DNA from: an uncultured Puniceicoccaceae bacterium
Lineage (GTDB): Bacteria > Verrucomicrobiota > Verrucomicrobiia > Opitutales > Oceanipulchritudinaceae
DNA: 64,000 nucleotides
Assembly (NCBI GenBank): GCA_963933835.1
Contig: CAWVVV010000001.1
Span: 384,001-448,000 of the forward strand
Reading direction: 5' to 3'
Shown: piece after piece, positions 36,001-39,000 of the stretch
Numbering within the stretch: the first letter of the stretch is position 1
Layout of the letters: each line of letters starts with the position of its first letter
Made by a program: the position numbers

Positions 36001-39000
36001 GAGCGACCAGAATAAACCGCTTGCGGCGAAAGTTTGTGATGCGAAAGCGCTGGCTCATCGTTTCGATTCAGGCGTGAGCTGAGCGCTCCCGCCAGAAATA
36101 AAAAAAAACGCTCAGACCGAAGTCTGAGCGTCTATCAAAAATAAACGGATGACAAAAAAGCGTCCGGACTAGTTGCGCTTGGCAGCATCGTAGAGGCGTT
36201 TTTCCTTAACCTTATTCGCTGCCTTACCGATTCTGTCGCGGAGGTAGTAGATACGTGCACGCATCGTGATCGATTCGCGATCGACTTCAACCTTCTCAAT
36301 ATTCGGGCTGTGAACTGGGAAGACACGCTCTACACCTTCGCCGAAGCTGATACGGCGAACGGAGAATGATTCGTGAATGCCTCCGCCTTTACGAGCGATG
36401 ACGATGCCAGCGAAAACCTGGATCCGTTCCTTACTGCCTTCACGCACACGGGTGTGGACCCGAACTCCGTCGCCTACCTTAAAGTGGGCGCGGTCTGATT
36501 TGATTTGTTCCTGCGTGAGTTCTTGAATGAGTGCGTTCATGACAATGGGTCTTTTGAAAGTAAGTCTGGGCGCCGTTGGCGTGTTTTCTCCTCTTGGCGT
36601 TCGCGTCTCCATGCGGCGATGGCGGCGTGATTACCTGAAAGAAGCACCTCAGGCACATGCATCCCATTATATTCAACGGGACGCGTGTATTGAGGAAAGC
36701 CGAGCAAGCTGCTACTGAAGGAATCTTGGGTCAAGGACTTTTCCTCACCTAATACTCCAGGAATTTGTCGGGCGACGGTATCGATGAGAACAGCCGCTGG
36801 TAGAGTGCCATTTGTGAGGACGTAATCACCGATGCTAATTTCGCGATCGATCTTCGCCTCACGCACTCGTTCGTCGATGCCTTCGTAGTGTCCACTAACG
36901 AGAACGAGGTGCTTTTCTTGGGCCAACTCACGTGCCAAGGCAGTCGTCAGTCGTTCACCATCAGCGGAAAGGTAGATGACCTTCGCTTCTTCGCTTTTCA
37001 CCGCATCGATGGCAGAAAAAAGCGGTTCAGGCTTCAAAAGCATACCGGCTCCACCACCAAAGGGGCGGTCGTCGGTAATTTGCCACTTACCCTCTGCCCA
37101 GTCGCGGAGATTGTGTGCTTTCGCATCGATTAAGCCACGCTCAATCGCGCGACCAATCATGCTTTCGGTCAAAAACCCGCCAATCATGGCGGGAAAGAGG
37201 GTTAGAATATCGAAGCGAATCTGAGCCGTCATCGATATCTGCGATTCTTCGCTGAGCCAGATCGCCCGATGGGCGGGGGCTTCACGCGAATTTAGGCCTC
37301 AGTCTCGGTAGCAGCCTCAGCGGGTGCCGCAGCAGCCTCAGCGGGCGCCACAGCAGCTTCAGCGGGTGCCGCAGCAGCCTCAGCGGGCGCCACAGCAGCT
37401 TCAGCGGGTGCCGCAGCTGCTGCTTTGCGAGCGCGCTTGATGATCGATCGGACTGTTTCCGACGGCTGCGCGCCAACACTTTGCCAGTAGTCAATGCGCT
37501 CAAGGTTGATCAGCTCACGCTTTTCAGCCACTTTGTTACGTGGATCGTAGATGCCTACTTTCTCAACAAAGCGACCATCGCGACGGAAGCTGGATTCAGC
37601 AATGACGACGCGATAATTTGGGGAGTGAGTTGCGCCTCCACGCTGCAAACGAATTTTAAGTGACATGTGTACTAGAAAATTTAGGGAAAAGCGGCGAAGA
37701 AAAGGTCGGTTTCTAACCCGAGTCAAGGGCATTTCGACACAAGCAGGACCTCAGACTCATAAAGCGTCTACTCTGCAGCAGGGTTTTCTTCCGTCTCCTC
37801 AAGGAATCCCTCTAGCCACTCGACATCGTCAGCAGGCTCACGGGCAGCCGCATCCACATACGTTTGGTGCAGACGCTTTGTCGCGTCTTCAAGCTGCTTT
37901 TGCGCTTCTTGAAGGGCTTCTGCATCCGCCGCACGCTGCAAGTTTTGGAACTGCTCATTGAAGTCCAGCCATGCTTCGCGCTGCTCAGGCAGCGTTTCGT
38001 CGCTCAGAAAGAAAAGTTTATCAGGTGAATCCAACATTGCCGAGCTTGCTTCCAAGGCCTCACTAAAGCGCTGAAGACCCTTCACCTCTGAAACCACGCT
38101 ACGCAGGTTGGCAACCTCTTCGGTCAATCCATTAAGCGCAGCTGATTGGCGGGCTTTAGCCGAGATTAACATCGTGCGTTGGCTCACCAACTTCTCGCTC
38201 ACTCCCTGTTCGGAAAGGAGCTTACCTGCGCGCTTAGGCACGGGAATGCGTAGCATATCGTTGCCTACCAAACGAATTGGGGCACGCCGCTGGCCCAGCG
38301 TCTGGCGCTGAAAATTCATCTCATTAAAAAAGGGGATGAGCGTCGCGAGGTCGATGTCGGGCAAGTTCATCTCTCCTTCGAGCTTGCGTGCGATGTCTGT
38401 AAGCGTCTCTGAAACGCCTACCTTGTATTCGACGAAGTCATAGTTTCGCTCATCGAGCGCCTCCCCAGAAATTTCTCCAACTGCTGCCAGGCCTTTCCAA
38501 GCATCCTCAAGCAGGCTAAGCGCTTCGCTGATTTCAACCTCAGCGGCGTCGAGCGCATTCAATTGCATATCAATCGAGGCCACTGTAACAGCCGTTATCG
38601 AAGCAATCGCCTCAGTCTCGATGATCAAATCGGCAACGACACTATCAATCACGACACGCCCTTGGCGCATCAACTCACCGCGCTCTTCGTAGGCAACCTG
38701 CATTGAGGCTACATCATATGCGAGACGTGCTGCGAGGGATTCCGCCAATATCTCACGAGTGCGAAAAAGCTCATCCTCCAACGCGGACTGGATCGCCTTG
38801 GCGCTCTCATCCACAACGGGGACTTCAATCACGTCCACCCGCACGCGCTCGTCCGATTCGACGACGGGAACTAAGCTTACATTCTGCTCTACGTCTGGTC
38901 CATCACCACCGAAAATGATCGGATCCGAACTCTCGCGAACAACAAAGTAACCCACCAGGGCCAAAAAAACGACTAGATAGGCTATTCGCCGGATCCATCC

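Follow-up and report, generated by a model that had tools for sequence, protein, structure and literature searches.

The Opitutales-like genome studied here (1,943,552 bases, or 1.94 Mb, in 10 contigs; 97.35% complete) lacks four factors of small-subunit assembly, Era, RimM, RimP and RsgA, with the usual slots of era, rimM and rimP empty and the same absences recurring, to differing extents, across related genomes. The four genes have probably been truly lost, in an old lineage-specific loss that would leave the remaining RbfA–KsgA–YbeY core to carry assembly. The survey's finding had named Era, RimM and RimP; the absence of RsgA is an addition to that list. Absence in this genome was established with six profiles (TIGR00436, PF01782, PF02576, PF17384, PF07650 and TIGR00157), each run with positive controls: the models exceeded their cut-offs in 10/10 bacterial control genomes (PF17384 in 9/10), and one Nitrospirales and one Bradymonadales genome, serving as controls among metagenome-assembled genomes (MAGs), carry Era, RimM and RimP. 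The genomes sampled for the distributions given below are mutually related and many of them are MAGs.

The window, a stretch of 64,000 nucleotides of one contig to which all coordinates refer, contains the locus in which rimM would be expected:

37292..37666, minus strand, rpsP (bS16), 124 amino acids; TIGR00002 at 90.5 bits (cut-off 45.3) over residues 3–80
37233..37291, no strand, 59-nt spacer between rpsP and trmD; site of (khpA-)rimM in other bacteria
36537..37232, minus strand, trmD, 231 amino acids; TIGR00088 at 301.6 bits (cut-off 195)
36169..36540, minus strand, rplS (bL19), 123 amino acids; TIGR01024 at 139.8 bits (cut-off 90.7)

The coordinates agree with the order reported before, in which only 59 nt part rpsP from trmD–rplS, and all three proteins lie above their NCBIfam cut-offs. 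The rpsP product consists of a core of ~80 amino acids and an Ala/Pro/Glu-rich repeat tail of ~40 amino acids, rplS overlaps the trmD stop by 4 nt, and the closest named relatives of TrmD are from Opitutales and Cerasicoccus (64–68% identity).

RimM would be recognised by a PF01782 domain with a PRC barrel and by a gene between rpsP and trmD, and neither was found in this genome, where PF01782 gave 0 matches at E ≤ 10. A full-length RimM profile of our own, built from 30 sequences from non-PVC loci out of 47 ORFs upstream of trmD (the other 17 had no RimM-like N-terminal motif and were left out), was searched with all filters off against the 26,172 six-frame ORFs of the genome, where no match was better than E = 2.2. 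In 33 non-PVC loci, 759–2439 nt separate the bS16 core from trmD, and each of the 30 loci that supplied the profile has an ORF as long as RimM finishing at trmD. The rpsP–trmD spacer in 20 PVC-type loci measures −10 to 708 nt, with RimM in none of them and no conserved ORF. Locus L022, whose bS16 match is on the opposite strand, is omitted from these spacing data. RimM above the cut-off was found in 0/201 genomes of the phylum, 0/201 of the class and 0/51 Chlamydiota, so that the claim of an absence genome- and phylum-wide stands. Loci of Kiritimatiellia, Lentisphaeria, Methylacidiphilales and others do carry a KhpA-like KH ORF in the rpsP–trmD interval; no such protein is encoded in the present genome, where the best match (14.4 bits) falls within RNase Y, and KhpA therefore cannot be a general substitute.

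For RimP, characterized by a RimP_N domain with an Sm-like C-terminal domain and a gene directly upstream of nusA, the genome yielded a single PF02576 (RimP_N) match of 12.9 bits, below the cut-off. The one PF17384 (RimP_C) match, also below its cut-off at 14 bits, was rejected because its ORF runs antisense to a genuine gene. As had been claimed, no rimP lies upstream of nusA; the nearest gene there, 300 nt away, is divergent, and none of 30 nusA loci in the phylum has a conserved same-strand ORF at this place. RimP_N exceeded its cut-off in 1/201 phylum genomes, 3/201 class genomes and 0/51 Chlamydiota. Two of the three class matches lie inside RND efflux pumps and the third (34 bits) comes from a contig of just 1,950 bp in a genome (G135) in whose genus 23 of the 24 sampled members have none, which is probably contamination. 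Above its cut-off, RimP_N was met nowhere but in these two pumps and this one probable contaminant. Weak matches of 21.6–26.9 bits in Era-bearing families of the class were rejected, being located inside RND efflux pumps.

The Era model TIGR00436 gave 14 matches in this genome at E ≤ 10, none above the cut-off (best 64.7 bits against 116.25). All are confined to model positions 2–168, which correspond to the G domain, leaving the KH part unmatched, and they belong to Der, MnmE, HflX, IF2, YihA/EngB, FeoB, Obg, YchF, TypA, UvrA and ABC ATPases; no protein thus combines a G domain with a C-terminal type-II KH domain over the full model (TIGR00436/NF000908). PF07650 (KH_2) exceeded its cut-off only in uS3, with no extra KH_2 protein, and the weaker matches (RNase Y, NusA, PNPase and an epimerase-like protein) were discarded as Era substitutes on the basis of their architecture. 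Neither slot holds the gene: rnc is followed by mfd where rnc–era–recO would be expected, and the phoH–HD–ybeY operon stops at ybeY. The earlier description of a genome without Era, with rnc running into mfd, is thus borne out by both searches and by gene order.

Across the phylum, an automatic tally placed 141/201 genomes above the Era cut-off, but it was rejected as inflated because Der carries two G domains. Counted by hand as full-length rows (69 plus one split match), Era is present in 70/201 phylum genomes, made up of 0/67 in the part belonging to the class and 70/134 in the other classes, whereas an unfiltered sample of the class itself contained full-length Era in 41/201 genomes. Era is thus patchy both in the phylum and in the class, and it is absent from all sampled genomes of the order (families f1–f5, 0/27 genomes in the unfiltered class sample). 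The apparent absence of Era from the whole class (21/21) was a sampling effect. The Era-less members of the order include one-contig genomes of 3.1–6.1 Mb and the cultured Cerasicoccus frondis (5.8 Mb).

RsgA (YjeQ) is a GTPase with a circularly permuted G domain accompanied by OB and Zn-finger domains. The best TIGR00157 match in the genome reached 20 bits, inside YihA, against the more than 100 bits by which we would recognize the protein, and the remaining matches were to MnmE, Der and two ABC ATPases. RsgA lies above the cut-off in 69/201 phylum genomes, and Era and RsgA are both missing from 91/201 (about 45%; two counts combined by hand).

Der, Obg, YihA (EngB), HflX, YbeY and KsgA are all present in the genome, confirming that these factors are kept. 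So is RbfA, identified together with its position in the nusA–infB–rbfA operon; this protein, one of the presumed load-bearing factors, is itself divergent, scoring 41.4 bits against an NCBIfam cut-off of 51.15. A simplified 16S 3′ end or anti-SD alongside the loss of factors was not seen in the relatives. The Era binding site GTCGTAACAAGGTA...GGATCACCTCC, with its canonical 16S end (...GGATCACCTCC), was found in 30/71 class genomes, Era-less complete genomes included, and the 3′ end that Era binds is therefore, judged by sequence, unchanged in relatives; in the genome itself the 16S gene breaks off where its contig stops (model positions 9–1387), and the assembly does not contain its 3′ end.

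The alternative that survives best, though we consider it unlikely, is a non-homologous replacement, in which the chaperone roles of Era, RimM or RimP passed to some protein peculiar to the lineage or to an extended ribosomal protein, such as uS5 with its RG-rich N-terminus. In its favour, uS5 of this genome is extended at the N-terminus by 119 amino acids that include a long RGG/RGP run, uS11, with which Era and YbeY interact, is extended there by 62 amino acids, PNPase ends in an RG/RD-rich tail, RG-rich uS5 extensions recur in two other class genomes (76 and 67 amino acids), and the portion of Gupta (2012) considered here describes a small PVC-only protein of unknown function, not located in this genome. 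Against this, such uS5 extensions occur in some class members only, and the length of uS5 does not follow the losses: open frames in 25 class genomes have a median of 213 amino acids, with 5/25 of 190 or fewer, and the medians in other classes are 180 amino acids in 24 Era-less and 175 in 31 Era-bearing genomes, RimM and RimP being missing throughout. The bS16 proteins (80 to 124 amino acids) carry tails of unconserved low-complexity sequence, which are acidic in Verrucomicrobiota but basic in Parachlamydiaceae; a long bS16 (111 amino acids) is also present in Era-bearing Pontiellaceae. The suggested link between the uS5 and bS16 tails and the missing factors accordingly fails, and we rejected these tails as compensation. 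Nor does the genome contain an orphan TRAFAC GTPase, each G-domain match belonging to a named family, or an extra KH_2 or KhpA-like protein.

It is far less probable that the genome does encode RimM, RimP or Era in the form of homologues so divergent that the profiles missed them. RimM_N and RimP_N are short (84 and 73 positions), and since RbfA itself falls below its curated cut-off, assembly factors in this genome can be divergent; absence by profile would also be compatible with a homologue retaining the fold with no detectable sequence signal. However, the syntenic slots of this genome contain no ORF of suitable size, no conserved ORF appeared in the 20 PVC rpsP–trmD or the 30 nusA loci, our full-length RimM profile found no match, and for Era the KH part went unmatched while the G-domain matches were all to other named GTPases. 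That the genes simply lie within the missing 2.65% of the genome is hardly credible: despite the 10 contigs and an rRNA operon broken at a contig end, such an assembly or binning artefact would have to miss four unlinked genes at once, the usual neighbours lie within contigs with the slots closed, and one-contig genomes, both in the order and in the class, lack the same genes.

We therefore favour true loss, and because the losses are common to large-genome relatives they point to an old lineage trait, not a by-product of genome shrinkage: loss is not restricted to extremely reduced genomes, as the order also contains Era-less genomes of up to 6.1 Mb, compared with 1.94 Mb here. The loss of RimM and RimP probably predates the split of Verrucomicrobiota and Chlamydiota; with no Planctomycetota in the sample, its node is not fixed. 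Era would have been lost next, repeatedly and in separate branches that include the order as sampled; in an Era tree of 11 sequences, which had no more than two outgroups and contained a long branch, repeated loss and regain by transfer could not be told apart. RsgA would have gone last, in some streamlined Opitutales, this genome among them. With the four genes gone, late 30S maturation, that is of the 16S 3′ end, the platform and the decoding centre, would proceed here without any 30S-specific GTPase and would depend on RbfA, KsgA, YbeY, RNase III, RNase Y, PNPase and ribosomal proteins, with no dedicated replacement; we infer that these remaining factors suffice.

Known cases offer partial parallels. 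According to the relevant passages of a 2023 review (PMC10582724), Era has been lost in Chlamydia, Dependentiae and most CPR, which is ascribed to 'extremely genome-reduced groups', and is patchy in Planctomycetota, Elusimicrobiota and Synergistota; Verrucomicrobiota go unnamed in that text and its legend. Like Chlamydia, the genome has no recognizable Era (two Parachlamydiaceae genomes examined here also lacked it), and Chlamydiota are also without RimM and RimP. Unlike the Era losses covered in those passages, however, those in Verrucomicrobiota extend to genomes of 3–6 Mb and to cultured isolates. Absence of RimM and RimP from most CPR is treated, in the section of Meheust et al. (2019; PMC6744442) that deals with it, as a trait separating CPR from other bacteria. 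Verrucomicrobiota share the lineage-wide lack of both, but, in contrast to CPR as portrayed there, they are an ordinary phylum with large genomes and have kept Der. A search for literature on Era, RimM or RimP in Verrucomicrobia or other PVC bacteria found no paper stating such a loss.

How far such losses can be borne is indicated by mutants. The statement that Era is essential wherever tested does not hold, era being non-essential in S. aureus, S. pneumoniae, M. tuberculosis and some B. subtilis strains according to the same part of the review (PMC10582724). In E. coli, as the pertinent excerpt of PMC9032327 reports, rimM and yjeQ (rsgA) knock-outs are viable and slow-growing, and single loss of rimM, rimP, rsgA or rbfA is tolerated with slow growth and accumulation of 17S rRNA, implying that assembly routes are redundant. 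Compared with these single knock-outs, the four factors are here naturally missing together, including Era, which is indispensable to E. coli.

Much more doubtful than true loss itself, and on balance improbable, is the broader proposal that an early change of late 30S assembly in the Verrucomicrobiota–Chlamydiota lineage, through an unrecognized factor or altered folding of rRNA and ribosomal proteins, made RimM and RimP dispensable and later left Era and RsgA prone to recurrent loss. If it were true, the chlamydial losses would have been inherited from a free-living ancestor and would not reflect intracellular genome reduction, and ~45% of the sampled verrucomicrobial genomes (the 91/201 above) would build their 30S subunits without a dedicated 30S GTPase.

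Era is regarded as nearly indispensable, and the review, in the passages cited above (PMC10582724), limits its loss to extremely genome-reduced groups. An ordinary large phylum without RimM and RimP and with many losses of Era and RsgA, cultured isolates and genomes of 5–6 Mb among them, makes it possible to study how 30S subunits are assembled without Era in natural systems that can be cultured. In PVC bacteria era, rimM, rimP and rsgA are also poor universal completeness markers. Annotation of Era holds a further trap, since Der, because of its two G domains, exceeds the whole-protein cut-off of the Era model, reaching 122.9 bits only when both domains are summed.

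The rpsP-trmD-rplS locus of the window comprises the following features:

36169-36540, minus strand: rplS (bL19), NCBIfam match of 139.8 bits against a cut-off of 90.7
36537-37232, minus strand: trmD, NCBIfam match of 301.6 bits against a cut-off of 195
37233-37291, between minus-strand genes: 59-nt spacer separating rpsP and trmD, from their coordinates
37292-37666, minus strand: rpsP (bS16, 124 aa), TIGR00002-type NCBIfam match of 90.5 bits against a cut-off of 45.3

TrmD similarity assigns the organism to Verrucomicrobiota, within Opitutales or near that order. From about residue 80 of its 124 aa, bS16 runs into an Ala/Pro/Glu-rich repeat. 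The closest TrmD sequences, at 64-68% identity, are those of Opitutales metagenome-assembled genomes (MAGs) and Cerasicoccus. At the gathering threshold, Rfam matched the window once, at a bacterial small SRP RNA (42700-42798, minus strand; 72.1 bits).

The gene order described in the survey's finding was seen again. Besides the 59-nt spacer at the usual place of rimM, nusA opens an unbroken nusA-infB-rbfA-(DHH protein)-truB-ribF series on contig 1 and has 5' of it, where rimP usually stands, a 300-nt gap and then a divergent gene. Of the two genes that era usually follows, rnc is succeeded by mfd, and ybeY is the last gene of a phoH-HD-domain-ybeY operon. Profile searches bear out the absence of Era, RimM and RimP from this genome (1,943,552 bases, 10 contigs, completeness 97.35%). 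The Era model TIGR00436 gave 14 matches (E ≤ 10), which reach 64.7 bits at most (cut-off 116.25) and all stop by model position 168, the end of the G domain; the underlying frames, inspected and for the main ones scanned with NCBIfam, were those of Der, MnmE, HflX, IF2, YihA/EngB, FeoB, Obg, YchF, TypA, UvrA paralogues and ABC ATPases. KH_2 exceeded its cut-off in uS3 only, with weaker matches in RNase Y, NusA, PNPase and one unrelated protein. RimM_N had zero matches, and an independent full-length profile, built from 30 RimM proteins of non-PVC loci and run with all filters off, reached a lowest E-value of 2.2 among the 26,172 six-frame ORFs of at least 40 aa. RimP_N had a single match of 12.9 bits; a RimP_C match of 14 bits was rejected, its ORF lying antisense to a genuine gene. 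RsgA, overlooked in the survey, joins the list of absences, TIGR00157 topping out at 20 bits within YihA and otherwise matching MnmE, Der and two ABC ATPases. Since four unlinked genes are missing, and each closed slot lies inside a contig, an assembly gap is ruled out for practical purposes. Mfd gave only sub-cut-off matches to the RecG models, via the common helicase core.

The statement that the other 30S factors are kept holds for Der, Obg, YihA/EngB, HflX, YbeY and KsgA, which exceed their NCBIfam cut-offs, as do YchF, NusA and RNase III. RbfA (contig 1, 345636-346010) is divergent and falls below its cut-off (TIGR00082, 41.4 against 51.15 bits), its identity resting on this match together with its location in the nusA-infB-rbfA operon.

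The loss of RimM and RimP is broader than first stated. No RimM over cut-off was detected in 201 genomes of the phylum Verrucomicrobiota (completeness at least 90%), in line with the 61 of 61 phylum genomes lacking it in the survey, nor in 201 unfiltered genomes of the class Verrucomicrobiia or in 51 Chlamydiota. RimP_N exceeded its cut-off in 1/201 phylum genomes, 3/201 class genomes and 0/51 Chlamydiota (one of these scored in part). Two of the three class matches were rejected, being inside RND efflux pumps; the third, also the sole phylum match, lies on a contig of 1,950 bp in a MAG from a genus otherwise without RimP_N. A Nitrospirales MAG and a Bradymonadales MAG carry Era, RimM and RimP, so the method works on MAGs. 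At 20 PVC-type rpsP-trmD loci the spacer ranges from -10 to 708 nt and holds nothing, a KhpA-like KH ORF or (Cerasicoccus) an unrelated membrane/acetyltransferase ORF, but never RimM, whereas at 33 non-PVC loci 759-2439 nt separate the end of the bS16 core from trmD. The ancestral order therefore looks like rpsP-khpA-rimM-trmD-rplS, from which rimM would have been cleanly removed. A conserved same-strand ORF 5' of nusA was absent in 30/30 nusA loci of the phylum. The KhpA/YlqC-like ORF stands between rpsP and trmD at ten compared loci (L025, L029, L030, L034, L037, L040, L042, L043, L052 and L069) from Kiritimatiellia, Lentisphaeria (with a long N-extension), Methylacidiphilales and other verrucomicrobial genomes, and is missing in this genome and its closest Opitutales relatives.

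Era is patchier than the survey stated. By hand count, 70/201 phylum genomes encode a full-length Era, i.e. 0/67 class genomes, representing 15 class families only, and 70/134 others. The automatic tally of 141/201 was inflated because Der has tandem G domains, whose scores sum, such that the whole protein (contig 2, 2739-4196) reaches 122.9 bits and passes the Era cut-off of 116.25; automated Era annotation and marker counting can be misled by it. The claim that all class genomes lack Era did not survive the unfiltered class sample, in which 41/201 carry full-length Era, clustered in few families (f48, 10/11; f54, 24/26; f63, 3/3); none was found in families f1-f5 of this genome's own order (0/27) or in other large class families (f9, 0/26; f10, 0/13; f53, 0/10). 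Era was present in one Pontiellaceae (Kiritimatiellia) genome and absent from Cerasicoccus frondis (5.8 Mb), a Lentisphaerae MAG, a Methylacidiphilales MAG and two Parachlamydiaceae. RsgA is also patchy (over cut-off in 69/201 phylum genomes), and both proteins are missing from 91/201 (hand-combined). Two single MAGs, completeness not given, from Omnitrophota (G251) and Firestonebacteria (G252) keep RimP and lack Era and RimM by profile; neither group is named in the passages on Era loss of the 2023 Era review (PMC10582724).

The observation is real and robust. According to passages of the same review, Dependentiae, Chlamydia and most CPR, groups with extremely reduced genomes, are the only known bacteria to have lost Era; its text passages and legend call Planctomycetota, Elusimicrobiota and Synergistota patchy and do not name Verrucomicrobiota. 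RimM and RimP are among the families that CPR lacks in the part consulted of Meheust et al. 2019 (PMC6744442). Our literature search found no published statement of these losses for Verrucomicrobia. The pattern is surely already implicit in marker-gene and orthologue tables; the lineage is new, this kind of loss is not. The interest lies in the involvement of large-genome, culturable bacteria and in recasting the chlamydial case. Era loss is no genome-size effect, same-order Era-less genomes in one contig measuring 3.1 to 6.1 Mb. The sequence bound by Era, GGATCACCTCC (PMC10582724, in the part consulted), was found unchanged with helix 45 at the 16S 3' end of 30/71 class genomes by exact pattern search, the remaining 41 giving no match, in many cases because rRNA is unassembled in MAGs. 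The sole 16S gene here (contig 9, 11071-12450) ends at a contig edge at model position 1387 of 1533, its match broken at position 874 and the rRNA operon unassembled.

Most likely, RimM and RimP disappeared early, at a point inferred, from samples of these two phyla, to precede the divergence of Verrucomicrobiota and Chlamydiota, and Era and RsgA were then lost repeatedly, this streamlined genome representing the minimal end, without any 30S-specific GTPase. Non-homologous replacement of the missing factors appears unlikely; the genome offered no orphan GTPase, extra KH_2 protein or KhpA as a candidate. Under simple loss, late assembly would fall to RbfA, KsgA, YbeY, general RNases and ribosomal proteins; these retained factors may suffice given known redundancy, E. 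coli single knock-outs of rimM and yjeQ being viable (PMC9032327, in the part consulted) and era dispensable in several species (passages of PMC10582724).

Compensation by the uS5 and bS16 tails, as the survey suggested, finds no match with the losses. Here uS5 (contig 2, 375897-376703; 268 aa) has a 119-aa RG-rich N-extension with a long RGG/RGP run. Across 80 genomes the median uS5 open frame, an upper bound for protein length, was 213 aa in 25 class genomes (5/25 at 190 aa or less); in other classes the genomes with Era (31) had a median of 175 aa and those lacking it (24) one of 180 aa. RG-rich extensions occurred in few class members only (30 loci read), and bS16 tails are low-complexity and unconserved, one Era-bearing genome having one too; the tails thus do not track the losses. 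RG-rich uS5 extensions of 76 and 67 aa were seen in two other class genomes, most relatives having 8-30 aa. Low-complexity extensions occur on several RNA-associated proteins of this genome: uS11 (contig 2, 380237-380782) has an acidic 62-aa N-extension, and PNPase (contig 1, 339599-342022) ends in an RG/RD-rich tail and, after it, an acidic one rich in Ser, Glu and Pro.
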